From Escherichia coli (GTDB lineage: Bacteria; Pseudomonadota; Gammaproteobacteria; Enterobacterales; Enterobacteriaceae), in the NCBI RefSeq assembly GCF_001677475.2, contig NZ_CP015229.1: a stretch of 64,000 bases of DNA. The stretch is one strand, 5' to 3'. Shown piece by piece: positions 23,726 to 41,305 of this stretch. Below the pieces are notes generated by a model that searched no databases, had not been told where the DNA came from, and saw only the letters and a list, made by a program, of their open reading frames with translations. A program made the translations under genes and the position numbers. The number at the start of each line of letters is the position of its first letter. Within the stretch, counting starts at the first letter, position 1.

Positions 23726-24385
23726 TTAATCGCGGCTGGCGAAGCCCAGAATGCTCAGCAGGCTGACGAAGATGTTGTACAGCGAAACATACAGGCTAAC
23801 CGTGGCACGAATATAGTTCGTTTCACCGCCATGAATGATGTTGCTGGTTTCAAACAAAATAGCGCCAGAGGAGATCAGAATGAAGACCGCGCTGATCGCC
23901 AGATGCAGAGCAGGCAGTTGCAGGAAGATATTCGCAACCATACCAATCAGCACCACCACAATACCCGCCATCAGCATACCGCCGAGGAACGACATATCTT
24001 TGCGGGTGGTCAGCACATATGCAGAGCAGCAGAAGAACACTAACGCCGTTCCGCCCAGTGCCATCGCGATTACGTCACCCATTCCGGCAGACAGATAGGT
24101 ATTCAGAATTGGTCCGAGGATATAACCCAGAAAACCGGTAAAGGCGAATGCGGAGATAATCCCGGTCGGCTTATTCGCCGTTTTATAGGTCAGGAACATC
24201 AAACCATACATACCCACCAGCGTCAGAATCAGACCCGGAGATGGCAGCATCAGCACCGTACTGGCAGTTGCGGTAATCGCCGAAAAGGCCAGCGTCAGGC
24301 TCAGCAGAAAATAGGTATTACGCAGCACCTTATGGGTGCTAAGCAGTGATGTACGGTCATGTGAAGAACTAACAATACGATCCAT
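23726..24385 (-). CDS. yccA: BAX-inhibitor family membrane protein YccA
   Basis: 219 aa, 7-TM, K-12 synteny. Confidence 0.9.
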
Positions 24386-24554: not shown

Positions 24555-24590
24555 AAAAGGGGTTAGCATTTAGCTAACCCCTTATCTTAT
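24555..24590. terminator. Hairpin downstream of the serT 3' end
   Basis: ggggttagcatttagctaacccc stem-loop. Confidence 0.6.
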
Positions 24591-24591
24591 T

Positions 24592-24651
24592 TGGCGGAAG
24601 CGCAGAGATTCGAACTCTGGAACCCTTTCGGGTCGCCGGTTTTCAAGACCG
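24592..24651 (-). tRNA. serT: 3'-terminal ~60 nt of tRNA-Ser (serT), truncated at the anticodon stem; prophage attachment junction
   Basis: Reverse complement reads CGGTCTTGAAAACCGGCGACCCGAAAGGGTTCCAGAGTTCGAATCTCTGCGCTTCCGCCA; the 5' half (D-arm, acceptor) is absent and replaced by phage DNA. Confidence 0.85.
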
Positions 24652-24792
24652 AAGAAAAATAAAGAAAAATCAGTATAATACGCAAAATAGCCGAAAAGTT
24701 AATCAGACTTAACACCAAGAAAAATCAAGATGTTAGGGAGTTATTCAGAGTTAATATACCAGGTCTTTTTGCCAGAAAATTTTCTGGATTGT

Positions 24793-25812
24793 CTACTTAC
24801 TGACCACAAGCGGCAAATCCAGTGTTGGCGTGATTTTGGTTTTACGATCGTAAATCAACACCTGATTTTCTGTTTTGTGTCCACTGAAAATTTGTTTGTC
24901 GCGACTGCTGCCTTCGTAATCTGAAATCCCTTTGGCTTTTATGTCATGGAAGTTGCACCCAAACGGAACGCCGGCTTTTTGCTCGGCTGCACGTTTAGCC
25001 TGATTCCACCAGTTGTTCAGCGTCTTGGCTATTACCTTCCCGCCTTTGGTTGTGTTGATCACATACTCGCATGTGCCGGAAGATACATTTCGGGCTAACT
25101 GGATCGCCGTACGTAATCGCGGAGACCATTCCTTGATTTGTTTAGTGCCAGTCTTGTTTTGCTCAATGTAAATCCCTTTATCCATAATATCCTGCCATTT
25201 CAGCTCGAGTACATCACCGAGCCTTGCCGCACAAAGATAGGATATCTCCATTGCAATACGTAACTGTGGAATTGCTTCCGCATATATTGCTGCATACTGT
25301 TCATCGGTGATGTAAACAGTACGGGCTTTAAGTGTGAATTTTCTGACACCTTTGCATGGATTATTTTTCACATACCCACGCTCATATCCCCATCCGTATA
25401 CACGGCTCAGACTTGCCAGTTCATGGTTTGCCTGGGTCTTGCTCTCAAGTCCTCGCTTATCCATGAAAATTCTTACCTGTTCAATTTTTACATTATCAGC
25501 AAGCACTTTTCCGAATACTGCCAACAATGCCCTTTGATGTTGCCGATAATCTTTTTGGGTTCGGGGGGCCAGTTCTGTAAATGCAGGGGAGTCCATAAAC
25601 ATGTGCCATAATTTAGCTACTGTCATTATGTTGTGGAGTTTTGCTTTTTCCAGCTCATAATTTTGCCAGACTTTAGCTACGCTGGTTTCCCGCACTCTTC
25701 CGAGCCCTATAGTTCTTGTGCTTCCTTCGGGTTTCCATACGTAACTGTAACCGTTCGATCTAACACGCGGTGGTAGTGCATTATCTTTTTTGTTTTTTCT
25801 TGGTCTTCCCAT
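24793..25812 (-). CDS. int: Prophage tyrosine integrase
   Basis: 339 aa, adjacent to tRNA junction, C-terminal H-x-x-K...GH...Y catalytic pattern. Confidence 0.85.
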   Translation of the reverse strand: MGRPRKNKKDNALPPRVRSNGYSYVWKPEGSTRTIGLGRVRETSVAKVWQNYELEKAKLHNIMTVAKLWHMFMDSPAFTELAPRTQKDYRQHQRALLAVFGKVLADNVKIEQVRIFMDKRGLESKTQANHELASLSRVYGWGYERGYVKNNPCKGVRKFTLKARTVYITDEQYAAIYAEAIPQLRIAMEISYLCAARLGDVLELKWQDIMDKGIYIEQNKTGTKQIKEWSPRLRTAIQLARNVSSGTCEYVINTTKGGKVIAKTLNNWWNQAKRAAEQKAGVPFGCNFHDIKAKGISDYEGSSRDKQIFSGHKTENQVLIYDRKTKITPTLDLPLVVSK

Positions 25813-26032
25813 TGTTCAGCGCCTCAAAATCGGGTTCAGCGGAAACCAGCTCAGGTGCTTTTGGCATCGTTGTCAGTCCGTGTGGAATATCCCTGCGAAG
25901 AACTATTGGTTCGTTTTTAGGACCGATTACAAATGGGATGCCGTGCAGCCTTAACTGGTGTTGCTGTTTTGTGTATCGCTCGTATTTCGTGATCTCTTGA
26001 ATCTCTGCTGGCGATAGAGTTAATTCGTACAT
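25781..26032 (-). CDS. xis: Putative excisionase
   Basis: 83 aa basic protein overlapping the int start; call by position. Confidence 0.5.
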   Translation of the reverse strand: MYELTLSPAEIQEITKYERYTKQQHQLRLHGIPFVIGPKNEPIVLRRDIPHGLTTMPKAPELVSAEPDFEALNNGKTKKKQKR

Positions 26033-26098: not shown

Positions 26099-28549
26099 TT
26101 AAAAATCAACCGGATTCGGGATCAGTTTTTGCCAGATTGCTGAAACGTATTTTGCCTGGTAACGAGCGTCATCAAGTGCATTATGGCGCTCACCTTCGAA
26201 TGGGATAGCTGTTCTGGCATCGAAGTCTATGGCTTTCCCCAGCTCAACGATTGTGCGTACATCGCGATCGTTGCAGTAGCGCCAAGGGCAGGGGATACCC
26301 TGTCGTTCGTATGAACGGCGTAAAATCACGTTGTCGAAGTTGGCCCCATTACCCCAGACCTGAACAAAAAATTCACCGGAGTTTTCGTCGATAAATTCCC
26401 GCAATTGCAGCAGTGCATCATCTAACGGGATTTCATCGGTCAGAATGGCAGATTGCGCCTCGCGTGATTGCTTAAGCCACCATTTTATGGTGTCACGATT
26501 AATGACTCCGCCAGCAGTTTCCAGATCGATGGTCTTACTAAATTCCGGCCCCATATCTCCGGTTTGCGGATCGAAAAATATTGCACCTATTGAGATAATC
26601 GGGGCATCGGGATTTTTTCCCATGGTTTCAAGGTCGATCATAAGATGGTCACATGACCTGCTTGTGGATGTGATATTGTGATAACCGTTCACCTTAATTA
26701 AGGGATCTGTTGCTTCGCCAGTTTCATTATCGCTGGCGTGATGCTGATTGCCTCCAGTGTTCTCCTTGTGTGGATGTTCAGCGCCTTCCATTTCCTCCGG
26801 ATCATTCTCCTGAGCTTCAACCTGATTCTCTTCATCGAATGTTTCCTGGTATGTTGCGTTTCCCATGACCGCGCCACAGTCAGGACAGTTGCCGCCGCTG
26901 CTCTGACCGCAGACGGTGCAGACTTTTTCCGGTTCCTGTTGCACTACTGGTTCGGATTGTTTCGTTTCTGGTTCGTTTTGTTGCGCATTTGGGCTGTTTT
27001 GTTCCGCTTTCTGGTCGTTCTGTGCCGTTTCTTGCTGGTTCTGGTTCACAGAATCGCGGGTTTCAATCCCCTTCACCCATTTCGGATCATTCGGGTCGCT
27101 AATCCCTGCAACAAATTCACCACGTGATGCAGCGAGCAACTGACTGGCGTCAGGCAGGCTGATATTGGCTGCCTGCATAATTTTGTTTACTTCGTCAGCG
27201 GTAACTTTTACCTGATTAACCGGATCTATCTGTGCCTGAGTATCCAGCGATTGCGTGTCCTGGCGAAGTTCAGTTGTATCCGGCTCCATTGCTTCAGTCG
27301 TTGCCTGTTCATCTGCCATTGCGTCAGACGGTTGTGATTTTTCATCATTATTTTTTTCTTCTTCTGTTTCGCGTTTAGCAGCCAGTTCGCGGTTAACTTC
27401 TTCCTGGATATCTTTTTCCGGTGTATGTCGTGCAGCAGCGAGAGTTTCTTCGGTAGGGTTCTCGTGATCAGTCTCCGTTAAGTGGGCGTTGATATACTCC
27501 TGAAGGCGTCCCGGGTAGAGATAAAGTTCAGGGTGAGCACTTCGGATAAGTGCAAAAATAGCGGCACGGGAATAATCCAGAATACCAGGGGTTGCGCGAA
27601 GTGCTGCGGACCATTCTTTGAACGGACTTTCTTTCTTCCGGACGACTTCTTTTGCGCGACGATAAACGCTGCCCGGAATTTCATAAATATTAAAATCCAT
27701 CGGAAGTGTGGCCGCTGCAATCTCCACATCCAGCGTATCGAAGGTGTGTACTAAATTCGGATTGCGATCGGTTTTGTTCCCGCCGCCAGCATTAGCACCG
27801 GAAGCCGTGCGGATGATGCGTGAAACACGATTCCCCTTCATCCACTCTTTTGTAAGCAGACCGCGATCGGTGTAGTCAGCGCCCAGGTATGCTTCGAAAA
27901 AAGCAGTCATCAGTCCCAGGTCTGAATTGCCAGGATTAGGGAAAACTTTGTCAGTGTCACGAACCAGTTTGTGGAGATCGCGAATTTCCAGCGGTTCGAG
28001 TTGCGCTGCTTTATTTGAGATGGCCAGCGCGGTAACGGCGGGAAGTTTTTCATCCTGTGCGTTATGTAATGCGCGCAGTTCGCCCCGCGAAACGTGAGTG
28101 ATCGGTTTTTCGCTGCCGTGCTGAGCAAGCCAGCGAATGGGAAGTATCTGGCCAGAAACCGGGAGTAGCATATTCTCCTCAATATCAGTCATGTCTTCGC
28201 CGTTGACGTTGGTATTGTCAGTGCTGGCTGGTTTATCCTGAACAGAGGGCGCGATAAATACCATTGTGATACCATCTTCCCCGCCTTTTTCGTATCGGTT
28301 GCAGAATTCGGTATCAAACACACCTTCCGGAGGCAGGTCATTCACAACGGGTAAATGGACGCGGACGGGTTTTTTAAAGTCGTCTTCATCATAATCGTTG
28401 TCATCCATTGCGGTAATACAACGGGAGATGGCAACAGATAATTTTTTTGCTGTGGTCCAGTAAAAACCACCTTTAATTCCCAGGCGTTTTCTGACTTTGT
28501 CATTTTTTGCTTCGCAATATAGCGCAAATTCTTCTTTTTCAGTGCTCAT
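26099..28549 (-). CDS. Large prophage exonuclease with C-terminal DnaQ-like (DEDDh) 3'-5' exonuclease domain and central acidic/Q-rich region
   Basis: 816 aa; C-terminus LMIDLETMGKN...HNALDDARYQA; CxxC...CxxC zinc ribbon; low-complexity E/Q/N-rich segment. Confidence 0.6.
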   Translation of the reverse strand: MSTEKEEFALYCEAKNDKVRKRLGIKGGFYWTTAKKLSVAISRCITAMDDNDYDEDDFKKPVRVHLPVVNDLPPEGVFDTEFCNRYEKGGEDGITMVFIAPSVQDKPASTDNTNVNGEDMTDIEENMLLPVSGQILPIRWLAQHGSEKPITHVSRGELRALHNAQDEKLPAVTALAISNKAAQLEPLEIRDLHKLVRDTDKVFPNPGNSDLGLMTAFFEAYLGADYTDRGLLTKEWMKGNRVSRIIRTASGANAGGGNKTDRNPNLVHTFDTLDVEIAAATLPMDFNIYEIPGSVYRRAKEVVRKKESPFKEWSAALRATPGILDYSRAAIFALIRSAHPELYLYPGRLQEYINAHLTETDHENPTEETLAAARHTPEKDIQEEVNRELAAKRETEEEKNNDEKSQPSDAMADEQATTEAMEPDTTELRQDTQSLDTQAQIDPVNQVKVTADEVNKIMQAANISLPDASQLLAASRGEFVAGISDPNDPKWVKGIETRDSVNQNQQETAQNDQKAEQNSPNAQQNEPETKQSEPVVQQEPEKVCTVCGQSSGGNCPDCGAVMGNATYQETFDEENQVEAQENDPEEMEGAEHPHKENTGGNQHHASDNETGEATDPLIKVNGYHNITSTSRSCDHLMIDLETMGKNPDAPIISIGAIFFDPQTGDMGPEFSKTIDLETAGGVINRDTIKWWLKQSREAQSAILTDEIPLDDALLQLREFIDENSGEFFVQVWGNGANFDNVILRRSYERQGIPCPWRYCNDRDVRTIVELGKAIDFDARTAIPFEGERHNALDDARYQAKYVSAIWQKLIPNPVDF

Positions 28550-28639
28550 TGATAAACCTCATTACAGATTTAAGGGTGAACAAATCCCTGCCATTGCTGG
28601 CATATAAAAATGAAACCGGATATTTATTACTGTGCTGTT

Positions 28640-28831
28640 TTAAAGTCCTGCCGGGACTTCGTTATTATCCATGCGAATAACTTTATCGACCGGATAACAG
28701 TTACCGGGAATTTTTTGTTCTGCTGCGGCAGCCATGCATTCTTTCATTGAACCGTATAAGCCAGTCACCAGCTCAAGAGATTCGCCGGAAACAAGATAAA
28801 CTGTCAGAACGAGTGCAAATGTTGTATTCAT
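28640..28831 (-). CDS. YdfD-like small protein
   Basis: 63 aa immediately downstream of the dicB-like gene, as in the Qin dicB-ydfD arrangement. Confidence 0.45.
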   Translation of the reverse strand: MNTTFALVLTVYLVSGESLELVTGLYGSMKECMAAAAEQKIPGNCYPVDKVIRMDNNEVPAGL

Positions 28832-29016
28832 TGTTTATATCCTTTTTGCCGCAGGTCCAGACGAGCCAGCATTGAAGGAATGCATACTTCATTTAACAGG
28901 TCCTGCTCGAGTGTTCTCTGCTTAATGGCGTCTTCAATAAATGTTTTGTCTCCGGTGATAACGCCAATTTCGAAACGAAGTTCAGACGTACTGGCATTGC
29001 ATGATAACTTTTCCAT
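28828..29016 (-). CDS. dicB: DicB-like cell division inhibitor
   Basis: 62 aa; FEIGV...EDAI..R...LLN..CI.SMLARL pattern matches DicB as recalled. Confidence 0.75.
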   Translation of the reverse strand: MEKLSCNASTSELRFEIGVITGDKTFIEDAIKQRTLEQDLLNEVCIPSMLARLDLRQKGYKQ

Positions 29017-29190
29017 TATCGCGTCCTCAACAATGAATTTTGTGATGCGGTGCCTGGTGCCTCCAGGTGACGTTAACCAGTTAACAATTAACGCCGGAGT
29101 ATTTCACGTTACGCCAGTAAAGGACCGCTTTACTGTTTTAACTGTTCCGCGTGCGCTTAGCCGCATTCACCGCATCACAAAATTCACTTT

Positions 29191-29245
29191 AAAAAGGGCG
29201 GACATCAGCCAGCAATGAAAACTGATGCCGCCAAAGGTACCAATC
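29191..29245 (-). ncRNA. dicF: DicF-like small RNA with intrinsic terminator
   Basis: Reverse strand reads TTTGGCGGCATCAGTTTTCATTGCTGGCTGATGTCCGCCCTTTTT, close to the recalled DicF sequence, immediately upstream of dicB. Confidence 0.5.
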
Positions 29246-29784
29246 AACATGGAGTGTTGCGGCGGGGTTGTCACTCAGGCGTATGGTCAACCTGACAACC
29301 CGGTGTCACCAGTGGGGGTAAGGAAAACCCCGCCATACTTACCGCCGCGCCATTTCGCGGAGTGCCACAACCGGAAGCGCACGGTCGACGAAAATTTAAC
29401 GACAGGCTATCTATGAACCATAAACCTCGCCGTGCGCTTTCGCGTTATGCCCTGACTTTTCAGGGAAATATCCTTTCAGTAAACTGTCAGTGCCGGATGT
29501 TCACCCGTGTCCGGCGCACGCACTCCACCTCACCCGTGGAGAACCCCTTAATTACCAACCCTCAGGAGAGTGAATGTTAAAATCAACTCTTATTGCTAAA
29601 TGCCTTTATCAAAATCGCATGGTAAGCAGCATTTCAATAGGCGAGTCTGCAGTTAAAAGTATTTTCGAAGAGTTCTTTCCCGGGCATGATTTTAATAAAT
29701 GGAATACCAAATTACCGCCAGCAGTTTCAACGCGTATTCTGAAAGCAACTGAAAGAGCAAGTACAATTCGCGTTAACTATTTCA

Positions 29785-30204
29785 TTAAAGATTTGTGGGA
29801 TCTTTGATATCCACAGAGCCTAAAGTATGTGCATATGGATGTGCTATTGTGCGCCCTCGCAGATTTGCATCATTTTCTAAATTCACTGAACGAAACAGGG
29901 CATCAACAAGGCTCTGTACAATGCAAAGGCAATCGAAGACTGTCGCTGTTTCTGTTTTGATTGATGAAAGAACATGGCCATTCACGCAAACAGAAATTAC
30001 CCGTTCATTAACATCGCTTTCCTGCTTTTGATTATCAGAACTATATAGCCCAGAAAAAGCATTGCGCACATTATGAACCATATTATCGATGGTTTCTTTT
30101 TCTACGGTACTCAGGTCAAGAGTCGCCAGTTGAGAACGAACTATATTCGCTGCCATTTCCTGGAATGGTACTGGTAAATCTTTAAATTCCATCGTCAACC
30201 TCAT
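29785..30204 (-). CDS. Hypothetical prophage early protein
   Basis: 139-aa ORF in the leftward early operon. Confidence 0.4.
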   Translation of the reverse strand: MRLTMEFKDLPVPFQEMAANIVRSQLATLDLSTVEKETIDNMVHNVRNAFSGLYSSDNQKQESDVNERVISVCVNGHVLSSIKTETATVFDCLCIVQSLVDALFRSVNLENDANLRGRTIAHPYAHTLGSVDIKDPTNL

Positions 30205-30207
30205 CAG

Positions 30208-30462
30208 TCAGTGGTTTTCAATCTCTCGTGAAACGTTTAATGCCGCGCTTTTTGCCAGAGTGGTAATATCCAGCTCCGCTGACGCCAGTTCTTTAGAGAG
30301 GTGCTCTTTGTTGTTAGCAGCCTGTTTCAGGTCATTAATGGCGCGTATCTTCCCGAACATCCATTCGTAAATTTCATCATCGGTATAGCCTGGTGCGATG
30401 ATGGTGGGTTCTGGTTTCTGCATGTCAGCTCCTTGTGGTTCGCATTGCCTGCTTTTAACCAC
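30208..30462 (-). CDS. Hypothetical prophage early protein
   Basis: 84-aa ORF; start may be the internal Met (MQKPEPTII). Confidence 0.4.
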   Translation of the reverse strand: MVKSRQCEPQGADMQKPEPTIIAPGYTDDEIYEWMFGKIRAINDLKQAANNKEHLSKELASAELDITTLAKSAALNVSREIENH

Positions 30463-30515
30463 GTCAGGCGAGGTGGTATCCTCTGAGGGGTCTGTTACTC
30501 GAGAGGAAATTGGTT

Positions 30516-30716
30516 ATGAATACAATCAAGTTTTCTTGCCCAGAATGTGGTGGCGAAGTCTTTGACACATCCTTTAAGCCGCAGGGCTCTGACAGTTTCG
30601 CGGGAGCCATCTGCAAAAATTGTGGTCACCTTGTAACTGAAGATGAGTCCTCGCAGTTCGATGACGAAATCGTTGATAATATCTTCGGCGCACTCACCAG
30701 AGATTTCCTGAAGTAA
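30516..30716 (+). CDS. Hypothetical zinc-ribbon protein
   Basis: CPECGG...CKNCGH pattern and GAGAGGAAA RBS; conflicts with antisense ORF 30495-30851. Confidence 0.35.
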   Translation: MNTIKFSCPECGGEVFDTSFKPQGSDSFAGAICKNCGHLVTEDESSQFDDEIVDNIFGALTRDFLK

Positions 30717-31116
30717 AAGCGCATGCCGTTTAGTTACCGCTCTGATCATTCTTACTTGTCCGGTAATGGCGCTGACATCAGTATAAAGCGCCATTGCTGC
30801 TTCTTTGCCGATCCCAGGATGCCTTCCATTCTGATGTTTGACTTCGCCCACTGAGAAATCCTCTGTTTCCCCTTAACGCCGGGGTAGCGGAACAAAAACC
30901 TGCTGCATAGTTAAAGTTGAACCCTGCCGTCATGTTCTTACGCCTCGGGCTGGCTACTTAACCCCTGACCACTGCCTGGTAACTCGAAGTATTGCCCTGC
31001 GTTTTGTGGGGCGGGGTGGGTTAGTAAAAATAGTTTATACAAAAATAAACTAAACAGTCAATATGCAACTTAACTCTTTGGCGAGGATAACCCCTGTTGA
31101 GAGGGGCTTCGGGGGA

Positions 31117-31404
31117 TTAAGGTGTTACAGGGAACTGTCGGCGGGCGTGAACTACGCTAACAATTTCAATGCCTGAAATTGTCACGCGGTATAGAATTAT
31201 GTAATTGGGGTGAGCAACAATTTCACGCAAACCCGGAACTCTGTCGCTTGGCGGGTATAAATACGGATGCTCAGATAATGGCAGGACGCAAGTCCTTAAG
31301 CGTTTCCACAAACGTTCTGCCGCATCTATATCAAAACGAGCAATATAGCTAGTTATATCATCCAAGTCGGCATCTGCGCTTTCGAGCCATAAAACCGGTA
31401 ACAT
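31117..31404 (-). CDS. RelE/ParE-family toxin
   Basis: 95 aa, small basic protein immediately downstream of a small antitoxin-like ORF. Confidence 0.6.
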   Translation of the reverse strand: MLPVLWLESADADLDDITSYIARFDIDAAERLWKRLRTCVLPLSEHPYLYPPSDRVPGLREIVAHPNYIILYRVTISGIEIVSVVHARRQFPVTP

Positions 31405-31596
31405 TTACTGCTTGCTCCGTTCCTTGCGCATGTTAGCAAAGCGTTCAGCCATTCTGCGTTCAACTTCGTCATGTGGGATGGCTGGACGTGGATCAGCAAG
31501 GCTTGCGGCCACTTTTGCACGCAGCCATTCGTTATAACTATTTTCTTGCTCGATGGTTTCAAATTCAGAAACCATTGGTGAAAGGGCTGTGTTCAT
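31405..31596 (-). CDS. Cognate antitoxin (small acidic DNA-binding protein)
   Basis: 63 aa from MNTALSPMVSEFE...; abuts the toxin start. Confidence 0.5.
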   Translation of the reverse strand: MNTALSPMVSEFETIEQENSYNEWLRAKVAASLADPRPAIPHDEVERRMAERFANMRKERSKQ

Positions 31597-31631
31597 GGCG
31601 AACCTCGTTTTGTAAGTGCTGGTAATTCTGC

Positions 31632-32027
31632 CTAGGTAACTTTTTGTTGTGCTGCTAGCCACCTTGCAACTATACGATCCATTGTCTCTTTTTTTTCCTT
31701 CATATCTTTAAGTATTTGCTGTTGATCTTCCTCTGGAAATGCCTCAAATGTTTGAAGTAGCTCCTTTTGCTTAGGAGATATTTTTAATATATCCTGTGTT
31801 TTGTCTTCTTTTTCTTCATTTAATGGTAAGAAAAACCAATGTTGGGGAAAACCCGTTACTTCAGATAGTTTATCTAGATTAGCTGCTGTAGGGCTTGATA
31901 TACCACAAACCCACCTTTGGACGGATTGTTGAGCAATACCAATTCTGCGCGCAAGCTCTGCTTGACTCCAGCCTTTTTCTAATAGAAGCATCTTAATTCT
32001 AAGAGCACTAATTTCGAGTACGCCCAT
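31632..32027 (-). CDS. XRE-family HTH repressor (CI/RacR-like), paralog A
   Basis: N-terminal HTH LRIKMLLLEKGWSQAELARRIGIAQQSVQRW; C-terminal domain shared with the next ORF. Confidence 0.65.
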   Translation of the reverse strand: MGVLEISALRIKMLLLEKGWSQAELARRIGIAQQSVQRWVCGISSPTAANLDKLSEVTGFPQHWFFLPLNEEKEDKTQDILKISPKQKELLQTFEAFPEEDQQQILKDMKEKKETMDRIVARWLAAQQKVT

Positions 32028-32057
32028 CTGATATCTCTTGTTCCAGTATGTATCCCG

Positions 32058-32429
32058 TCAGGCTCGGCGACCTTGTCGCGCCAACCAACGTGCAACAAGA
32101 TCTTCCATTGCCTCTTTTTTATTTCTTAGTTCTTTTATGATCTCCTGCTGTTCATTATCAGGAAAAGCACTAAATATTTGTAGTAATTCCAATTGGTTAG
32201 GGGTTAATGCCATAGATCTTGATGACGAAGATTCTGTTGTGTCTTCAGGTTCCATATCAAGATAACCCCCAGGCATCCCATATGTTTGCTCAATACGTCT
32301 AGCTGCCTTTTCGCCAAACGTAGATTTACCGCTCATTAACTGAGATAAGTAACTTTTCTCTTTAGGCGGCAAAGTCCTGTCTTTGAACCACTCTTTGAGG
32401 CGTAAACGCCGAATCTCTTTTGTTTCCAT
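32058..32429 (-). CDS. HTH repressor, paralog B, divergent from cro-like gene
   Basis: C-terminus LTPNQLELLQIFSAFPDNEQQEIIKELRNKKEAMEDLVARWLA parallels paralog A. Confidence 0.6.
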   Translation of the reverse strand: METKEIRRLRLKEWFKDRTLPPKEKSYLSQLMSGKSTFGEKAARRIEQTYGMPGGYLDMEPEDTTESSSSRSMALTPNQLELLQIFSAFPDNEQQEIIKELRNKKEAMEDLVARWLARQGRRA

Positions 32430-32531
32430 ACATTCATTATCTTTAGTAATTGCAAAACAAGCAAATACTTGACTGGTTTATTTAGTTGCGTATAAACTTT
32501 CGCTTGTTCTAAATGTGCTGAGATAAAAATT
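32430..32531. promoter_or_regulatory. Divergent promoter/operator region of the immunity switch
   Basis: AT-rich intergenic region between divergent repressor and cro-like genes; AACAAGC/GCTTGTT inverted half-sites. Confidence 0.4.
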
Positions 32532-32819
32532 ATGACGCTAAAGGAATTCATCAAATCATTAAAAATTGGAGAAGCAAAAAAATTTGCGACCAACCTTGGT
32601 GTGTCTCCATCCTTCTTGTCCCAAATGGCATCTGGAACTTCACCTGTGTCTCCTGTTCGTGCGTTGATGATAGAAGCAGAAACTGGAGGACACGTTACAA
32701 GACGCGAATTGAGACCTAATGACTGGGAGCTTATATGGCCCGAATACACTGGAATCACGTCCCCTTCACGTCACAAATATGAACTTAACACCAAAAAGGC
32801 TGATGGGGTTGACTCATGA
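32532..32819 (+). CDS. Cro/YdaS-like HTH protein
   Basis: 95 aa; position and HTH as for Rac YdaS. Confidence 0.55.
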   Translation: MTLKEFIKSLKIGEAKKFATNLGVSPSFLSQMASGTSPVSPVRALMIEAETGGHVTRRELRPNDWELIWPEYTGITSPSRHKYELNTKKADGVDS

Positions 32820-33241
32820 TAATCAAGCATGAACACATCCGCATGGCGATGAATGCATGGGCGCATCCGGACGGTGAAAAAGTTCCGGCAGCTGAAATAA
32901 CCCGGGCTTATTTTGAGCTGGGTATGACGTTCCCGGAGCTATATGACGACAGGCATCCGGAAGCGCTGGCTCGTAATACCCAGAAAATTTTCCGCTGGCT
33001 GGATAAAGACACCCCTGATGCGGTTAAAAAAATTCAGGCGTTGTTACCAGCTATCGAAAAAGCAATGCCGCCTCTGCTGGTGGCCCGAATGCGCAGCCAC
33101 AGTTCAGCCTATTTTCGGGAACTGGTGGAGACGCGGGAACGACTGGTGAGAGACGCTGATGATTTTGTCGCAGTGGCGATCGCTGGTTTCAATCAGATGA
33201 ATCGTGGTGGTCCGGCGGGAAATGCCGTGGTGATGCACTAA
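32816..33241 (+). CDS. YdaT-like / CII-position protein
   Basis: 141 aa immediately after the cro-like gene. Confidence 0.4.
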   Translation: MIIKHEHIRMAMNAWAHPDGEKVPAAEITRAYFELGMTFPELYDDRHPEALARNTQKIFRWLDKDTPDAVKKIQALLPAIEKAMPPLLVARMRSHSSAYFRELVETRERLVRDADDFVAVAIAGFNQMNRGGPAGNAVVMH

Positions 33242-33248
33242 AAGCACG

Positions 33249-34232
33249 GTGTTCGGGGGTTTTATGAGCAGCAAGCTTCATGGTCTTGTCTGGGAAGGGT
33301 GCGCCTTCACTGGCATGATCTTATCCAGGGTGGCGGTTATGGCCCGTCTTGCAGACTACAGCAATGACGAGGGCGTGTCATGGCCTGCCATTGAAACTAT
33401 CCGGCGTCAGATCGGTGCAAGAAGTGAATCCACCGTGAAATCTGCTATTGCAGAACTGGCGAAAGAGGGCTGGCTGACGAAGGAAGAGCGTAAGGTCGGT
33501 GGGCGTAACGTAAGCAATATCTATCGGCTTAATGTGGAAAAACTCGAAGCAGCTGCAGCGGCGGCGCGTGAGGCATATAAACCGAAAAGAAAAATTAGCC
33601 CGGCAAAAAATGACCAGTTAACAGTTGACCAGTCAAATATTGCCCCATCAATGGTTGGCCCGTCAAATTTTGATGGATCAACTGTTGATAAAAAACTGCC
33701 GATTAGGGGGACGATGATTGACCCCGATCAGTCATTATTAAAACCTGATCCGTCAGATGAAAGATCTTCTTGTCCTGACGTTTCACTGCCGGACAAAAAA
33801 CAATCATCACCAGTTGAGCGATTTCTGGAGAAACACCCGGATGCGCATACCTGGAATGTGCAGAAGCGACAGTGGGGTACCCGTGAGGATGTCGCCTGTG
33901 CGCAGTGGATTTGGGGACGGGTTGTTGCGTTGTATGAACAGGCCGCCAGTGATGATGGTGAGGTATCACGCCCCAGAGAACCTAACTGGACGACCTGGGC
34001 GAATGATGTGCGCATGATGCGTATGCTGGATGGACGTAGTCACCGGCAGATTTGTGAAATGTTTGGGCGTGTCCAGCGGGATTCGTTCTGGGTAAAAAAC
34101 ATCATGAGTCCGGCAAAACTCCGGGAAAAATGGGATGAGCTGGTTATTCGTCTGGGGCGTTCGCCTGTACAGCGTTGCGTGAATCACATTTCTGAACCGG
34201 ATACCGAAATTCCGCCGGGGTTCAGGGGGTAA
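33249..34232 (+). CDS. Putative replication initiation protein (YdaU-like, N-terminal winged HTH)
   Basis: 327 aa; position in early-right operon. Confidence 0.45.
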   Translation: MFGGFMSSKLHGLVWEGCAFTGMILSRVAVMARLADYSNDEGVSWPAIETIRRQIGARSESTVKSAIAELAKEGWLTKEERKVGGRNVSNIYRLNVEKLEAAAAAAREAYKPKRKISPAKNDQLTVDQSNIAPSMVGPSNFDGSTVDKKLPIRGTMIDPDQSLLKPDPSDERSSCPDVSLPDKKQSSPVERFLEKHPDAHTWNVQKRQWGTREDVACAQWIWGRVVALYEQAASDDGEVSRPREPNWTTWANDVRMMRMLDGRSHRQICEMFGRVQRDSFWVKNIMSPAKLREKWDELVIRLGRSPVQRCVNHISEPDTEIPPGFRG

Positions 34233-34274
34233 GTGCTGATTTGAGGTCATGAAGTTATTTTCTCAGGAGAGTTT

Positions 34275-34676
34275 ATGGGGGCTATTTATACCGAAGAACA
34301 GCGGGAAAGGTTACAGCGTCACATCGTTGACCTTGTACGTAAAAACGGGCGTATGACAATGCCACAACTGGCATCGGCAACATATGCTTCACATGATTCC
34401 ATTCGCCGGTACCTGAAGATGCTGGTGAGCCAGGGCGAAGTGTATGTTGTCAGCGGAAAAGGGGTATTCCTTTCAGAGAGAGTTTACCGTGAATGGCTGG
34501 CAAGTTCGGCAAAAAAATCAAGGGTTATCCGCAAACCAGCACAAAAACAGGGTAAGGCCGGAGTACAACCCTACGACCGGCACCAGAACGTAATTTGCCG
34601 GGAATGTCGTAACAGCGAATCAATGCAGCGGGTACTGGCTTTTTACAGGGGTGGATTTCAGGAGCTCGTATCGTGA
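34275..34676 (+). CDS. Hypothetical protein
   Basis: 133-aa ORF. Confidence 0.4.
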   Translation: MGAIYTEEQRERLQRHIVDLVRKNGRMTMPQLASATYASHDSIRRYLKMLVSQGEVYVVSGKGVFLSERVYREWLASSAKKSRVIRKPAQKQGKAGVQPYDRHQNVICRECRNSESMQRVLAFYRGGFQELVS

Positions 34677-34981
34677 AAAAGTGGGTGCGTGCCGAGATAC
34701 TGATTCTACGGCAGTGTGCGGGAACAATGACGGTGGAATGCATCGGGATGCTTATTGGTCGTAGTGAGGCTGCGGTCAGAACGAAAGCGCGGGAACTGGG
34801 TATTAGTATGATGTTACGGGGTGATTATCACCAGTCAGCAAAATATCCGCAGAGTGATATTGAGCTGGCGCGACAGCTGCATCAGCGTGGCGTGTCCAGG
34901 AGAGAAATCGCCAGAAAATTTGGAATGCCGCTGCGCACAGTGAATAACTACGTTTATTTCGACAGGAGGGTGTCTGCGTGA
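34673..34981 (+). CDS. Hypothetical HTH protein
   Basis: 102-aa ORF, overlapping stop/start. Confidence 0.4.
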   Translation: MKKWVRAEILILRQCAGTMTVECIGMLIGRSEAAVRTKARELGISMMLRGDYHQSAKYPQSDIELARQLHQRGVSRREIARKFGMPLRTVNNYVYFDRRVSA

Positions 34982-35223
34982 AAATCCTGTATCAGGATTA
35001 CGGCCCGGTGGGACAGGTGGTTATCAGCAGTACTGTAATGGAGTTCCGGAAGCATAACCGTGTGGTGGATGCAGTGCTGTTAGCCTGTCCGGGGATATCG
35101 GCGAGCCGTGCAGGTGTGTTTTTTATGAAGACGAAGTTATATGGCAGTACAGCGTGGATAAAGAAGGCGTACCGGGTAGCGTTGCAGGAGGTAAACAGTG
35201 AGCGAATCGGCAACCATTCTTGA
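34978..35223 (+). CDS. Hypothetical protein
   Basis: 81-aa ORF. Confidence 0.35.
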   Translation: MKILYQDYGPVGQVVISSTVMEFRKHNRVVDAVLLACPGISASRAGVFFMKTKLYGSTAWIKKAYRVALQEVNSERIGNHS

Positions 35224-35686
35224 TATGTCCTGTGGCAGTCGTATGTTCTGGTTCGATAAGAATGACGACCGGGCGATATTTAGCGATATCAGAAAAGAAG
35301 AGCACACATTATGTGATGGACGACGCCTGATAATTAGCCCTGACCTGATAGCAGATTTTCGTGCATTACCATTTGCAGACGCATCGTTTCCGGTTGTTGT
35401 ATTCGACCCTCCGCATCTTGAGCGTGTTGGTGATAACGCCTGGATGGGAAAGAAATATGGACGGCTGAATAAAGATACCTGGCGTGATGATTTGCGGCAG
35501 GGATTTAAAGAAGCCTTTCGTGTGTTGTGGCCACACGGTGTTCTGATTTTTAAATGGAATGAAACGCAAATACCTGTCCGCCAGATATTGGCACTAACCG
35601 ACGCGAAACCAATCATCAGCCAGCGCACCGGTAAGAACGATAAAACACATTGGATTATTTTTGTGAAGGAAGCGACCAGTGGGTAA
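35198..35686 (+). CDS. Small orphan DNA methyltransferase (DPPH motif)
   Basis: 162 aa; VVVFDPPHLER motif IV-like; no adjacent restriction gene. Confidence 0.55.
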   Translation: MSESATILDMSCGSRMFWFDKNDDRAIFSDIRKEEHTLCDGRRLIISPDLIADFRALPFADASFPVVVFDPPHLERVGDNAWMGKKYGRLNKDTWRDDLRQGFKEAFRVLWPHGVLIFKWNETQIPVRQILALTDAKPIISQRTGKNDKTHWIIFVKEATSG

Positions 35687-35933
35687 ATCAAAATGCCAGG
35701 TTTATGGCAACAAGATAGAACCGAGTACGGCACTGGCAAACTCCCTTGAGCATGATGCTGAATACACGACGCGAAAAGGTCTGCTGATATACAAAATCTG
35801 GAATGAGAGTTTAACTCGCGACCCTGATTTGGTGATGTTGCGTTCCGGTGAATTTTCTAAATCACCAGTGCGGGTTTCATTTTGTCCGTTCTGTGGTGAA
35901 AGTCTGAAAACGTGGGAGAACAGAAATGAATGA
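35679..35933 (+). CDS. Hypothetical protein (CxxC)
   Basis: 84-aa ORF. Confidence 0.35.
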   Translation: MGKSKCQVYGNKIEPSTALANSLEHDAEYTTRKGLLIYKIWNESLTRDPDLVMLRSGEFSKSPVRVSFCPFCGESLKTWENRNE

Positions 35934-36237
35934 AATTAAAGAAATACCAGTAGTACGTGATGAATATGGCTGCTGGACGCATCCTGAATATGAAAAATTC
36001 TGTGATGGTAGAGAACATATTTCAACGGAAGAGTTTAACGCCTGGATGGAGGAAAATAATCTTCAATGGACCATCAGAACTATGGATGAAGATGATTTTA
36101 ATCTGGACGCAGATGGTCCCGATATTGCCTCCTGGAAACCGGAGCGCCCGGAAGGTGAAGGCTGGTTCATTGGTTCAATTCATGACACTGAAGATGGTCC
36201 GGTTTGTGTATGGCTGAGAAATAAGGTTGAAGCATAA
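35926..36237 (+). CDS. Hypothetical acidic protein
   Basis: 103-aa ORF. Confidence 0.35.
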   Translation: MNEIKEIPVVRDEYGCWTHPEYEKFCDGREHISTEEFNAWMEENNLQWTIRTMDEDDFNLDADGPDIASWKPERPEGEGWFIGSIHDTEDGPVCVWLRNKVEA

Positions 36238-36368
36238 AGGCGATAAACCACCTGACAACAAAACACTGAAAAATTTAAATCAGAAGTGAATTTTATTAAA
36301 TCCTTAACCGGAGGGATTCCTGCACTCTCAGAACATCAGGAGACCGCCCGAAAGGGCGGTAATGAAAA

Positions 36369-36836
36369 ATGGCTGAATTAACCAAATGGCTACAAAACAC
36401 GATTACCGGAATTGAAACGGTAGTAGACGATAAATCGTTTGTATGTGATGAAATAGTATTCAAAATCGATGTGGTTAAAAACGTACTTACCGCATTTAAA
36501 GTCGCGCTGGCATCGCTGGAAGCCGAACCGGTGACATGGCGATATCGCTACGTGAGAAAAGGCGTTACGAACTTTCAGGAGAAGCCGTGGGTTGGTGACT
36601 GGAAATATGTACCGACAAAAGAGGATTGCAACGACAGACCGAACTATGAAATTCAGGCGTTATTCACGGCCCAGCCTGTGCCACTGACACCCGAAGGATT
36701 GATTAAAGCGGTGCGCTTCTATGAACAGGTTAAGAGTGAAAATCCGCCAGTCGAAACCGGAGCATGGAAAGACGCTGTTGACTGGGTGCTCAAAGAGGCT
36801 TGTCAGGCTGTAAACATTGGCATCAAAGGAGAGTGA
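36369..36836 (+). CDS. Hypothetical protein
   Basis: 155-aa ORF; N-terminal WLQNTIT motif shared with ORF 37032. Confidence 0.4.
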   Translation: MAELTKWLQNTITGIETVVDDKSFVCDEIVFKIDVVKNVLTAFKVALASLEAEPVTWRYRYVRKGVTNFQEKPWVGDWKYVPTKEDCNDRPNYEIQALFTAQPVPLTPEGLIKAVRFYEQVKSENPPVETGAWKDAVDWVLKEACQAVNIGIKGE

Positions 36837-36837
36837 G

Positions 36838-37029
36838 ATGAACGGACAAATATCAATTGTTCGACCGGGAGCATGTGACGATCGCGAGATACGAATGATT
36901 ATTCGTCTGGCGATGGGGAAAACAATAACTGCTCTCATTACTCCTGAAAATCTCGCATTAGCATTAACAGGAAAGTCAGACCTGCCAATAGAGCTAAAGC
37001 TGCGAAATGTTGAGATTAAGGTGAAATAG
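36838..37029 (+). CDS. Hypothetical small protein
   Basis: ORF 36817-37029, start at MNGQISIV. Confidence 0.3.
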   Translation: MNGQISIVRPGACDDREIRMIIRLAMGKTITALITPENLALALTGKSDLPIELKLRNVEIKVK

Positions 37030-37031
37030 TT

Positions 37032-37244
37032 ATGAATACTCTTACCAAAGAATGGTTACAGAACACGATTACCAGCATTGAGTCAGCACGGGATGAAATA
37101 CCATTCGGACTCGATGAAGATCAAAGCAACATGCTTACCGCATTTACATTCCGGCGAGGAGAAGCAACGATTAAGCCGGGTAATGGTATTGAGCAGGCAA
37201 CTCACAGGATGAAATTACCGGAACCGCCGCAGGAGGTGAACTGA
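37032..37244 (+). CDS. Hypothetical protein
   Basis: 70-aa ORF; N-terminus paralogous to ORF 36369. Confidence 0.35.
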   Translation: MNTLTKEWLQNTITSIESARDEIPFGLDEDQSNMLTAFTFRRGEATIKPGNGIEQATHRMKLPEPPQEVN

Positions 37245-37639
37245 TGAAAGATGAAGTCGACAATGTTATCACCCTGGTACAGCCAAAATCAGAGGAGGAA
37301 GGACTCCTCAACGTTGTGATAACCGACAGAAAAAGCGGCGAGCAAAAATGCTGTCAGCATATCCGTACAACAATTTCAGAAGTGAATCGTACGATTACCT
37401 GCAACCGGTGTGGATTAGCTTTAGAGCCATTCGAGTTTATTCTCGATCGTGCGAGAAACGGTGAAAACATCGTGTCTGAGATTAAATCACTCTATGCAAA
37501 GCGGGATGCTCTTCGTGAAGCTGTGGCAAAACTTGAACGTGAAGAGAAAAACGCCAAAGCCCGGTTACGAGCAGCCAGGACAGCAATACTGTATGCGGAA
37601 AATGACCTTAAAAATATTGAGCAGGAGGTGAATCGATGA
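37244..37639 (+). CDS. Hypothetical protein with CxxC zinc motif and coiled coil
   Basis: 131-aa ORF. Confidence 0.4.
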   Translation: MKDEVDNVITLVQPKSEEEGLLNVVITDRKSGEQKCCQHIRTTISEVNRTITCNRCGLALEPFEFILDRARNGENIVSEIKSLYAKRDALREAVAKLEREEKNAKARLRAARTAILYAENDLKNIEQEVNR

Positions 37640-37719
37640 CCTGGCCTGAGGCATTCACCACGGTAGGAATTGCGATGGCGGTGGCGCTGGTGGTGTATTC
37701 GATTTGCCGCTGGGGATAA
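37636..37719 (+). CDS. Possible 27-aa hydrophobic peptide
   Basis: MTWPEAFTTVGIAMAVALVVYSICRWG, ATGA overlap with upstream gene. Confidence 0.25.
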   Translation: MTWPEAFTTVGIAMAVALVVYSICRWG

Positions 37720-37843
37720 ATCGCCGAAAAAAGATCCCGACACAAACATGAGCCGGGATCTTTGATTTATATAGCCTACGAATCCGCCAGTAAGAGAGGG
37801 GGCGGATGGTTTATTCTACCACCGGAATGATGTGGGTAAAAAT

Positions 37844-38143
37844 TTATAAGAAATCGGTTTCATAACTTTGCCCACCATGATAGATACCGACAATAAAGAC
37901 TTTTCTGCCATCAACGGCAAAAGCAATAATCGTTCTGTGGCGGAAATGAGTTACCCGCATCCCCTGGCGAATATCATCGCGTTTATTGCCCCGATGCGGG
38001 AATGTAGAAAACCCATCAAGATAATCAAGAAGCGCATTGGCATAATTGTCAGCAATGACGTTCCCTGCTTTCTCCGTTATATATCTGTGCAGGTTGATTA
38101 TTTGTTGTTCGGCCTCAGGAGTAATGATGACTTCATATGTCAT
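37844..38143 (-). CDS. ParE/RelE-family toxin
   Basis: 99 aa; paired with upstream ParD-like gene. Confidence 0.65.
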   Translation of the reverse strand: MTYEVIITPEAEQQIINLHRYITEKAGNVIADNYANALLDYLDGFSTFPHRGNKRDDIRQGMRVTHFRHRTIIAFAVDGRKVFIVGIYHGGQSYETDFL

Positions 38144-38148
38144 GCAGA

Positions 38149-38406
38149 TTACTTCCCGGATCGAATCGCGGCGCGAACCTGTGAAATGGAGCGTCCGTTG
38201 TTTGGATTTTCGCGGATAGAATCAAGAGAGGGGGCGGCTGAATGCGTTAACCACGCTTCGATTGCTTTATCGCGCTCATTCAGTGCGCGAAGCCCTTCAC
38301 GAATGACCTCGCTTTCTGAAGCATAGGCACCGGAAGCCACACGGGCGCGCACCATGTCAGCCATCTCGTTAGTTAATGTAATGCTGAATTGTTGGGTTGT
38401 ACGCAT
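38149..38406 (-). CDS. ParD-like ribbon-helix-helix antitoxin
   Basis: From MRTTQQFSITLTNEMADMVRARVASGAYASESEVIREGLRAL. Confidence 0.65.
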   Translation of the reverse strand: MRTTQQFSITLTNEMADMVRARVASGAYASESEVIREGLRALNERDKAIEAWLTHSAAPSLDSIRENPNNGRSISQVRAAIRSGK

Positions 38407-38487
38407 GGTAAACCTCACGGAGTAGGATAGAACACCATTCGATGATAGCACGTTGCCTGTTGACGACAACAGAAATCAGAGACAATA

Positions 38488-38820
38488 TTGCCGCACGCCA
38501 GCCTGAACAACTGGCACCTGCTGCGCCAGCAGAGACAACCGATGGCGCACGATACCAAATTACACAATTCTGATGATTCTGCCGTCTTTGCCAGCAGGCA
38601 CGGGCGGCGTTCCTGCACTTTCAAATCTGACTGGTTCCAGCATGACCCATGCACTGAAGAACAGGCCGAGTGGCTGATTCAGTGCTACCGCAGACACGGA
38701 TACGAGATTAAGAAAGCCCTCAGCCTCGATTATCGTCACTGGATAATCTCCGTCAGGCTTCCTTACTCTGAACGCCCACCACGTCCATCCCGCACATTCC
38801 AGCAACGCATCTGGAGGTAA
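38488..38820 (+). CDS. Hypothetical protein
   Basis: 110-aa ORF. Confidence 0.35.
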   Translation: MPHASLNNWHLLRQQRQPMAHDTKLHNSDDSAVFASRHGRRSCTFKSDWFQHDPCTEEQAEWLIQCYRRHGYEIKKALSLDYRHWIISVRLPYSERPPRPSRTFQQRIWR

Positions 38821-38821
38821 C

Positions 38822-39880
38822 ATGCGGGTATTGCTTCGACCTGTTCTGGTACCGGAACTCGGACTGGTTATCGTTAAGCCAGGCCGTGAATCCATGCAGG
38901 TATTCCATAACGGCAGAGTACTGGTGGAACCGGAACCGAAAAGTATGCGCGGTCTGCCGTCCGGAGTCGTTCCTGCCGTTCGCCAGCCGCTGGAGGAGGA
39001 TAAATCATTACTGCCGTTTTTCAGTAACGCACGGGTGATTCGTGCTGCTGGTGGTGCTGGTGCATTGTCTGACTGGCTGTTGCGCCATATTAAATCCTGC
39101 CAGTGGCCACACGGCGATTATCACCACAGTGAAACCGTCATTCACCGTTATGGCGCTGGCGCGATGGTGTTGTGCTGGCACTGCGACAACCAGTTGCGTG
39201 ACCAGACAGCCGAATCACTCGAGCAACTTGCTCATCAAAACCTGTCAGCATGGATGATTGACGTCATCCGTCACGCAATGAATGGCACACAGGAGCGGGA
39301 ATTATCGCTGGCTGAATTATCCTGGTGGGCAGTCTGCAATCAGGTGGCGGACGCGCTACCGGAGACAGTATTACGTCGTTCTCTGAGGTTACGTGCGGAA
39401 AAAATCCGCTCGGTGTATCGCGAAAGCGACATCGTACCGGGAGAGCAGACCGCCACCAGCATACTAAAGCAGCGCACAAAAAATCTTGCGCCGTTGCCTC
39501 ACTCTCATCAGCAACAGAACCCGCCACAGGAAAAGACGGTGGTCAGCATTGCCGTTGATCCGGAGTCACCGGCTCAGTATCTCCAGCGCCAGAAACCACA
39601 ACGGGAAGAGATGCCCGTATACACGCGCTGGGTAAAAACGCAGAAATGCATGACGTGCGGTAATCAGGCAGATGATCCGCATCACATCATTGGTCATGGA
39701 CTGGGAGGGATGGGAACAAAGGCTGATGATTTGTTTGTTATTCCGCTGTGCCGTAAATGTCATAACGAACTGCACGCCGGGGTAAAAGATTTTGAAGAAA
39801 AACACGGCAGCCAGCTGTTGTTGCTGATTCGTTTTTTAATGCACGCGAGAAATTCGGGTGTCCTGAAGTGGAAAGCATGA
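38822..39880 (+). CDS. YdfU-like (DUF968-type) protein with C-terminal Cys/His zinc motif
   Basis: 352 aa; CMTCGN...HHIIGHG...CRKCHNELH. Confidence 0.5.
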   Translation: MRVLLRPVLVPELGLVIVKPGRESMQVFHNGRVLVEPEPKSMRGLPSGVVPAVRQPLEEDKSLLPFFSNARVIRAAGGAGALSDWLLRHIKSCQWPHGDYHHSETVIHRYGAGAMVLCWHCDNQLRDQTAESLEQLAHQNLSAWMIDVIRHAMNGTQERELSLAELSWWAVCNQVADALPETVLRRSLRLRAEKIRSVYRESDIVPGEQTATSILKQRTKNLAPLPHSHQQQNPPQEKTVVSIAVDPESPAQYLQRQKPQREEMPVYTRWVKTQKCMTCGNQADDPHHIIGHGLGGMGTKADDLFVIPLCRKCHNELHAGVKDFEEKHGSQLLLLIRFLMHARNSGVLKWKA

Positions 39881-41079: not shown

Positions 41080-41084
41080 CAAGG

Positions 41085-41186
41085 TTGATTTTTCCGGAAT
41101 CTGTGGTAAATTTTCCCTAACGATGGGCGTTTTATGCCTGACGTTAGGATGATTTTTACAACCCGCCGTTGAGCGGGTTTTTTATT
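41085..41186 (+). promoter_or_regulatory. Candidate late promoter with tR'-like terminator
   Basis: TTGATT-N17-TAAATT-like promoter, then hairpin aacccgccgttgagcgggtttttta ~60 nt downstream. Confidence 0.4.
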
Positions 41187-41305
41187 GCCCGAAAAACGGT
41201 ACAGGACGTTAAACGCCCTGGTGGTTATGAATACAGTCTTTCAGCTTGCTGGCTTTTTCGACAAGAGTTATTGGTGTGTCACGTTAACCAGAAAAGGGAA
41301 AAGGC

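Follow-up and report, generated by a model that had tools for sequence, protein, structure and literature searches.

The left end of an Escherichia coli prophage lies within the tRNA gene serT

The locus

The DNA considered here is a stretch of 64,000 nt from an Escherichia coli contig (NZ_CP015229.1, assembly GCF_001677475.2), read on one strand and called the window; coordinates are window positions unless another record is named. Its left part is ordinary host chromosome: 23 kb follow the usual E. coli synteny (uup-pqiABC-rmf-fabA-...-tusE-yccA), with yccA as the final host gene. Next to yccA stands only the 3' part of serT, the gene for tRNA-Ser(UGA), and from there the sequence passes into a prophage that begins with an integrase gene (int), a small DUF4224 gene overlapping it and an exonuclease gene. 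A λ-like early, regulatory and lysis region follows, and the terminase large subunit gene (terL) is split by a second mobile element (Table 1). A preliminary description of the junction, made from the letters of the window and their open reading frames (ORFs), had placed it with its integrase at 24555-25812, and these coordinates are accurate.

Table 1. Features of the window at the serT junction and in the prophage to its right
Feature	Position	Strand	Remarks
yccA, final host gene ahead of the junction	23726-24385	-	219-aa ORF; yccA annotated at the same position in A36, UMNF18 and K-12
Native serT intrinsic terminator hairpin	24557-24583	-	11-bp stem, then U-run (terminator scan); host DNA, B arm
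Attachment (att) core, 65-bp identity block	24587-24651	.	TTATT trailer plus 60 nt of serT; exact in attL, attR, attB and attP
Displaced serT 3' fragment	24592-24651	-	Without 5' half or promoter; not a functional tRNA gene
Anticodon-loop heptamer CTTGAAA, putative 7-bp strand-exchange (overlap) region	24641-24647	-	Anticodon-stem inverted repeat on either side
Phage P' arm, core to int	24652-24792	.	Near-identical to right arm of Evi attP
TATACCA in P' arm, candidate arm-type Int site	24755-24761	.	Motif copy
Integrase, 339 aa, full-length λ Int homologue	24793-25812	-	Arm-binding N-domain plus catalytic domain; PF00589
DUF4224 protein, presumed excisionase or directionality factor	25781-26032	-	Overlaps int start; PF13986
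Exonuclease, 816 aa	26099-28549	-	Exonuc_VIII N-terminal part plus Rv2179c-like 3'-5' exonuclease domain; first early-left prophage gene
λ-like early, regulatory and lysis region	28550-45689	.	PHROGs matches, tRNAs
Phage tRNA-Met(CAU) and tRNA-Arg(UCU)	42380-42631	+	ARAGORN; downstream of Q antiterminator gene
TerB-family moron gene	42805-43230		Q-to-lysis region
Prophage terL, N-terminal part, cut by satellite	45689-46716	+	PF03354 TerL_ATPase plus PF20441 positions 2-64 only
Helper-embedded satellite, site type A_Terminase_1_246, 15.4 kb, in prophage terL	46710-62125	+	7-bp repeats
C4 antisense RNA (RF01695)	50652-50739	+	72 bits against a gathering score of 45; between Bro-N zone and replication genes
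Prophage terL, C-terminal part	62119-62855	+	PF20441 positions 64-283 (at 62130-62855), resuming exactly at the stop of the N-terminal part
Prophage portal gene	63049-64000	+	317 codons without stop, open at window end

A tRNA gene cut at the anticodon stem

The segment next to the host flank, CGGTCTTGAAAACCGGCGACCCGAAAGGGTTCCAGAGTTCGAATCTCTGCGCTTCCGCCA (24592-24651, minus strand), is the 3' 60 nt of K-12 serT without a single mismatch, whereas none of the 100 shuffles made as a chance control gave such a match. It corresponds to nucleotides 29-88 of the 88-nt gene. It begins within the 5' strand of the anticodon stem (CCGGT-CTTGAAA-ACCGG), at the second base of that strand, and it contains the anticodon loop, the variable arm, the T arm and the 3' strand of the acceptor stem, ending in CCA. 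The preliminary description had the tRNA cut at the anticodon stem with about 60 nt of its 3' end left beside the host terminator, and that is what is found: behind the fragment comes the serT terminator, identical in sequence to that of K-12 (fold energy -21.6 kcal/mol, z = -5.2), and then yccA.

The rest of the gene is absent from the window. Searching all of it for the 3' end of serT returns this single copy, and the 5' half (GGAAGTGTGGCCGAGCGGTTGAAGGCAC) was found nowhere in it with up to three mismatches allowed. ARAGORN calls no intact tRNA-Ser in the window, only the tRNA-Met and tRNA-Arg of the phage. A search of the junction against Rfam gives no tRNA match because the gene is truncated, and the truncation likewise explains why no tRNA is called at 24592-24651. 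An Rfam match to ctRNA_p42d at the junction, below threshold at 20 bits against a gathering score of 50, is merely the terminator hairpin and was rejected as meaningless. A scan for a promoter of the fragment turned up a weak facing site (9 of 12 matches) at 24702-24675 on the minus strand; with two sites found against 1.0 ± 0.8 expected, this is not significant. The fragment is most reasonably taken for an inert scar, and in an annotation it should not be listed as a pseudogene of concern.

Four attachment sites

The junction can be set beside the three other sites that take part in a site-specific integration. The comparison set consisted of K-12 for the bacterial site (attB), the free phage Evi for the phage site (attP), the window for the left prophage end (attL), and the genomes UMNF18 and AH19B041, used as proxies for the far prophage end, for attR. 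In K-12 the site is uninterrupted, with yccA, serT and hyaA contiguous. The window and this unoccupied site share 144 bp of unbroken identity that stops exactly at ...CAAGACCG; past this point K-12 continues into the 5' half of serT, and the window into AT-rich foreign DNA. The match to a strain free of the prophage thus ends at the core boundary, and the earlier statement that phage DNA has replaced the 5' half is borne out: phage DNA starts at 24652, and the right flank is the P' arm of the Evi attP. The left boundary of the prophage is thereby set precisely at 24651/24652.

The core common to all four sites runs TTATTTGGCGGAAGCG...CAAGACCG, and its 65 columns are the longest identical run between the attL of the window and the attR of UMNF18 (24587-24651). 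The Evi attP reads, in order, as the left arm of the UMNF18 attR, the 65-bp core and the right arm of the window. Conversely, the UMNF18 attR is foreign to the left of the core, where it agrees with the Evi attP, and from the core rightwards it is K-12 sequence. The comparison shows that the relationship of attB, attP, attL and attR fits the Campbell model without residue.

In both proxies the far end of the prophage carries a whole tRNA gene. In UMNF18 it lies ∼58 kb from the left junction, where an intact tRNA-Ser is annotated directly upstream of hyaA (1147238-1147325 of that genome). In AH19B041 an intact tRNA-Ser (3054348-3054435) adjoins hyaA at ∼57 kb from the left junction, ∼18 kb past the point that corresponds to the last position of the window. 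A second serT-derived core was searched for inside the window and none was found; the far junction is therefore outside it. By analogy with AH19B041, the far junction of the source genome would lie ∼18 kb past the window end. An attR is presumably present there, on the model of the proxies, and the essential serT is predicted, here as in the preliminary description, to be regenerated at that end of the prophage.

The same two junction types recur across the species. Among 5,426 complete E. coli genomes, 742 have the attL type and 747 the attR type, while 4,704 have the uninterrupted attB, counted where a genome covers at least 80% of the empty-site query. The near-equal counts of attL and attR are as expected if the two are paired, in about 14% of the genomes. 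A genome matches the junction queries at a median of 1 place, and some genomes do so at up to 4. Among complete E. coli genomes, identity at the junction reaches 99.0% at most, and coverage goes no higher than 56% of the early region and 83% of the late region. Taken as a whole, the prophage of the window is matched best by AH19B041 among the complete genomes.

The motif TATACCA has five copies in the Evi locus (7.5 kb), against 0.52 expected by chance; four fall in the P arm of attP, one in its P' arm and none elsewhere, and they are plausible arm-type sites for the integrase. Read in the direction of serT, the identity block starts 4 nt ahead of the anticodon loop. The crossover therefore most probably falls in this 7-nt loop, which has the inverted repeats of the anticodon stem on both sides; with one and the same core in all four sites, the exact point is not mappable from the sequence. 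On the other side of the core, the P arm of the phage continues with a 5-nt trailer and a terminator hairpin of host-like architecture (-20.7 kcal/mol against -21.6 kcal/mol for the host); since the P arm supplies a terminator, a rebuilt serT keeps one.

The two terminators were also compared directly. That of the P arm, GGGGCTACC...GGTAACCCC, is a diverged homologue of the host hairpin, GGGGTTAGC...GCTAACCCC (24557-24583), and the changes in the stem are mostly compensated. This suggests that the attP copy was captured, terminator included, from the serT locus of another enterobacterium. The P-arm positions compared were 2995-3025 of the Evi attP locus and 10300-10335 of one other locus (L003).

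The integrase and the adjoining early genes

Between the serT fragment and the stop codon of the integrase gene lie 141 nt, in keeping with the 140 bp given earlier. The protein scores 34.6 bits against PF00589 (cutoff 27.1) and aligns full-length to λ Int structures (E = 5e-18), the N-terminal arm-binding domain included; residues 1-60 align with the λ Int N-domain, where the match to 1kjk is weak. It is 100% identical to the integrase of UMNF18. Residues R197, K220, H289, H312 and Y321 correspond to R212, K235, H308, H333 and Y342 of λ Int, and together with K292 they are the likely catalytic residues. K292 occupies the position of λ R311, the second catalytic arginine, so that the motif reads HDIK instead of HxxR. 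All of these residues, K292 included, are invariant in 26 homologues down to 55% identity, which come from Citrobacter, Klebsiella, Salmonella, Dickeya and Sodalis. Because of this invariance K292 is a family trait. Lysine occurs at this position in 0.5% of natural tyrosine recombinases. The integrase can be regarded as a λ-Int-type tyrosine recombinase with a rare variant residue, belonging to a clade that uses lysine throughout and is taken to be active.

The DUF4224 protein is presumed to be the excisionase from its position and its overlap with int, as in the case of λ xis. The proxy genomes share the exonuclease annotation at the equivalent of 26099-28549.

A model of integration into serT

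Taken together, the window almost certainly contains the left end of a temperate λ-like phage that integrated Campbell-style into serT between yccA and hyaA. In the proposed course of events, the attP would bring a copy of the 60 nt at the 3' end of serT, followed by a 5-nt trailer and its own terminator hairpin, and the λ-Int-type tyrosine integrase would recombine it with the serT gene of the host. Strand exchange would most probably take place in the 7-nt anticodon loop, between the inverted repeats of the anticodon stem. The 3' part of the host gene, with its native terminator, would then be pushed to the int-proximal end and form the attL seen in the window, while at the distal end (attR) the host promoter and the 5' half of serT would be joined to the phage-borne 3' copy. 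A functional serT would be kept through this joining of the host 5' half to the phage copy of the 3' half. To our knowledge, serT is the sole tRNA-Ser(UGA) gene in E. coli K-12. It is essential, and the temperature-sensitive divE42 allele maps to it. With a sole and essential target gene, regeneration of serT at attR is effectively obligatory.

It is conceivable that the displaced half of serT has acquired a role in the 3' untranslated region (UTR) of int, either as a tRNA-like element for processing or stability or by giving rise to a tRNA-derived fragment, which would link control of int to the state of integration. The arrangement invites the thought: the fragment follows int on the same strand at a distance of 141 nt, with the native serT terminator still behind it, and such control would be loosely analogous to the sib retroregulation of λ. 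The facing promoter-like site is at chance level, however, and a state-specific effect on int is disfavoured because the free-phage form puts a very similar hairpin in the same position. Such a role is highly improbable.

Alternative explanations

Some observations weigh against integration into serT as set out above. The attR of the source genome is beyond the window end, which keeps the rebuilt serT out of direct view. No exact copy of this mosaic prophage exists among the complete E. coli genomes, where 56% of the early region is the most that any match covers; for this reason what the proxies have in common with it is the int-attP module plus the late region and not the whole phage. The interruption of terL means that no phage can be packaged before the satellite has been excised. 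Finally, the lysine in place of the second catalytic arginine could, considered alone, suggest reduced integrase activity. As an inactivating lesion it was rejected, on the grounds that the lysine is invariant in the family and that the substitution is tolerated in Cre: Cre R292K is active, and the same change slows ligation there.

Two other arrangements to the right of the junction can be considered. In one of them the prophage heads a stack of at least two elements at serT, with the intact gene further right, and the next copy of the core would then be a truncated serT at a phage-phage hybrid junction. The site has a record of this kind. It is a reported prophage site in lineages of Shiga toxin-producing E. 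coli (STEC), sometimes in tandem, tandem prophages there (patterns serT_1-3) have been reported in STEC CC119, and the genomes with up to four places matching the junction queries point the same way. Set against these are the median of one place per genome and the two proxies, UMNF18 and AH19B041, which share the junction and the late region and are each a single composite of ∼57-58 kb ending at an intact serT. A tandem array is thus improbable in the present genome, and if there were one, only the distance to the intact serT would change, the mechanism being the same. Less probable still is a decayed relic that has lost its distal end, attR included, by deletion or rearrangement, leaving the serT fragment as an orphan scar without a partner repeat. 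It would accord with the unseen far end, with the interrupted terL, and with the relative in UMNF18, which has several frameshifted genes and an IS679 insertion. Loss of the rebuilt serT should nevertheless be lethal, the gene being, on established knowledge, sole and essential; the int, xis-like, early, lysis and packaging ORFs are intact in the window, with portal open to its end; and the break in terL is a precise, reversible satellite insertion rather than decay.

That the segment came with the phage or resembles a tRNA by chance, with no junction in a host gene at all, is a negligible possibility. Phages do carry tRNA genes, two of them in this prophage. The segment matches serT at 60 of 60 positions, however, no shuffle matches it, it is followed by the host terminator and host synteny, and it belongs to the 144 bp contiguous with K-12 up to a sharp breakpoint; the alignments to K-12, UMNF18 and Evi rule out a phage-borne or chance origin. 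Campbell-type integration into serT accordingly stands as the preferred explanation of the junction.

A satellite nested in the terminase gene

The preliminary description counted at least 39 kb of prophage to the right of the junction. It is correct that the prophage extends past the window, since the portal gene is open at the window end; this portal is 93% identical to that of the AH19B041 prophage. The count itself needs dividing: 15.4 kb (46710-62125) are a separate satellite, and only ∼24 kb are serT prophage proper. The 39 kb are a composite of helper prophage and embedded satellite, not one phage.

The satellite is a phage-inducible chromosomal island (PICI) of the helper-embedded type (HE-PICI), co-oriented with terL and bounded by TCACGAA at 46710-46716 and 62119-62125. 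Its insertion point was defined by this directly read 7-bp repeat together with published attL and attR alignments (PMC10111431); the terL of A36 was set aside as a reference for the insertion point, being too divergent from the split gene. The supplement of Tommasini et al. 2023 lists A_Terminase_1_246 with TCACGAA and TTACCAA identity variants, and the attL and attR sequences found here are among its entries (PMC10111431). Genes for an Int (Arm-DNA-bind_3 plus Phage_integrase), AlpA, Bro-N, the C4 RNA, an AAA_25 helicase and a single-stranded DNA-binding protein (SSB) are followed by late genes for capsid, protease, portal, terminase small subunit (TerS) and terminase large subunit (TerL). 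The zones, int with AlpA, Bro-N with the immunity RNA, replication and late genes, are in PICI order, and the late zone is like that of a capsid-forming PICI (cf-PICI). C4 is an immunity RNA of the P1/P7 type and is mentioned for the 'dynamic zone' of HE-PICIs (PMC10111431).

A doubled TGTATTGC motif, diagnostic of helper-embedded PICIs (PMC10111431), is present in the satellite at 46847-46867 and 62023-62043. The left copy of the doubled tgTGTATTGCantgTGTATTGCa motif starts 134 bp after the centre of the left core, and the right copy ends 79 bp before that of the right core; the published spacing of the doubled tgTGTATTGCantgTGTATTGCa in HE-PICIs is ∼132 bp downstream and ∼81 bp upstream of the attP centre (PMC10111431).

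Two further repeat arrays occur in the satellite. Directly after the helicase gene (53332-53553), an iteron-like AAAAAGTGGGG is found in three copies ∼84 bp apart, within two 54-nt repeats; this repeat region is probably the replication origin of the satellite. Just past the stop of the satellite terL, TGCGGGTTA occurs six times (61682-61838): three copies are direct (61682, 61704 and 61725, at 21-22-bp spacing) and three inverted (61812-61838, at 8-9-bp spacing), and they surround a small palindrome at 61748-61781. The array may be a packaging site (cos or pac) or a regulatory one.

As long as the satellite stays in place, its helper is unable to produce TerL. Excision of the satellite would restore a terL reading ...TTTTTCACGAAACACATG..., and the published order of events is excision of the composite, replication, then excision of the satellite (PMC10111431). 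A satellite that gates the terL of its helper is biologically the more interesting feature of this locus; it was described and catalogued in 2023, this chromosomal site included.

The remainder of the prophage

The region between the exonuclease gene and terL follows a complete gene order normal for a lambdoid phage: repressor-like genes, a CII-like gene, an O-like replication initiator, a Ren-like gene, DUF968/HNH, RusA and Q, then tRNA-Met and tRNA-Arg, the TerB moron, endolysin, Rz, HNH and TerS. Two adjacent repressor-like ORFs (131 and 123 aa; 31632-32429, minus strand) both match phrog_5736, a transcriptional regulator, and may be a duplicated or split immunity repressor. Where the window has tRNA-Met and tRNA-Arg, the related serT prophages of A36 and UMNF18 have tRNA-Thr and tRNA-Gly; such a swap is typical mosaic variation of the moron region between Q and the lysis genes.

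Comparison with known systems

A prophage in a tRNA gene, with the gene regenerated at one end and a 3' fragment displaced to the other, was reportedly described by Reiter and colleagues in 1989 and is said to have been textbook material since; a classification of sublocations within tRNA genes (tDNAs) is credited to Williams in 2002. The left end in serT is a real example of this textbook configuration, already known and catalogued. The principle of a regenerated gene and a displaced fragment underlies the Islander algorithm, and among tDNA integrases crossover centred on the anticodon is the most frequent sublocation class (PMC4383910; for the latter, also a Klebsiella tDNA study). With that anticodon-centred ('A') class the locus shares the split target, the 3' part regenerated from attP, the int-proximal fragment, the adjacent tyrosine integrase, and an identity block reaching from the anticodon stem to the 3' end of the gene. 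It differs in that the block runs 5 nt past CCA and that the phage arm brings a diverged copy of the serT terminator, which are normal variations and nothing of substance.

The Int/attP system of phage λ is also comparable. Shared with it are a heterobivalent tyrosine integrase that aligns full-length, an xis-like gene overlapping int, the order attL-int-xis-exo...Q-lysis-terminase, and arm motifs repeated on both arms of attP. In contrast with λ, which uses a 15-bp core between gal and bio, the target here is a tRNA gene with a 65-bp block; the integrase has lysine for the second catalytic arginine, and the putative excisionase is a DUF4224 protein rather than a λ Xis homologue. Escherichia phage Evi (LR597642.1) resembles the window at the left end, with the int, DUF4224 and exonuclease module at 96% nucleotide identity and an intact attP in which the 65-bp serT core stands between two phage arms. 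It differs elsewhere: the record has 40 kb, genes for a λ-type tail fibre, Lom and an EspV-like protein lie by attP, and the late region is unlike that of the window prophage.

A close described counterpart is in UMNF18, where the helper 'Eco146.58.S' carries the satellite Eco146.15.A_Terminase_1_246 (PMC10111431). The site (yccA|serT...hyaA) is the same, the integrase is 100% identical, the HNH-TerS-TerL packaging module is shared, and a satellite of the same kind occupies the same terL codon. The 'S' in 'Eco146.58.S' is taken to denote the tRNA-Ser gene as target, which agrees with the tRNA-Ser found at the UMNF18 prophage end. The early region is a different mosaic from that of UMNF18, with Met and Arg tRNA genes and not Thr and Gly, other repressor and replication genes and no IS679; the satellite has TCACGAA in place of TTACCAA and an AAA_25 helicase in place of DUF927. 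The composite of helper and satellite at the serT site is thus one already catalogued by Tommasini, Mageeney and Williams in 2023 (PMC10111431).

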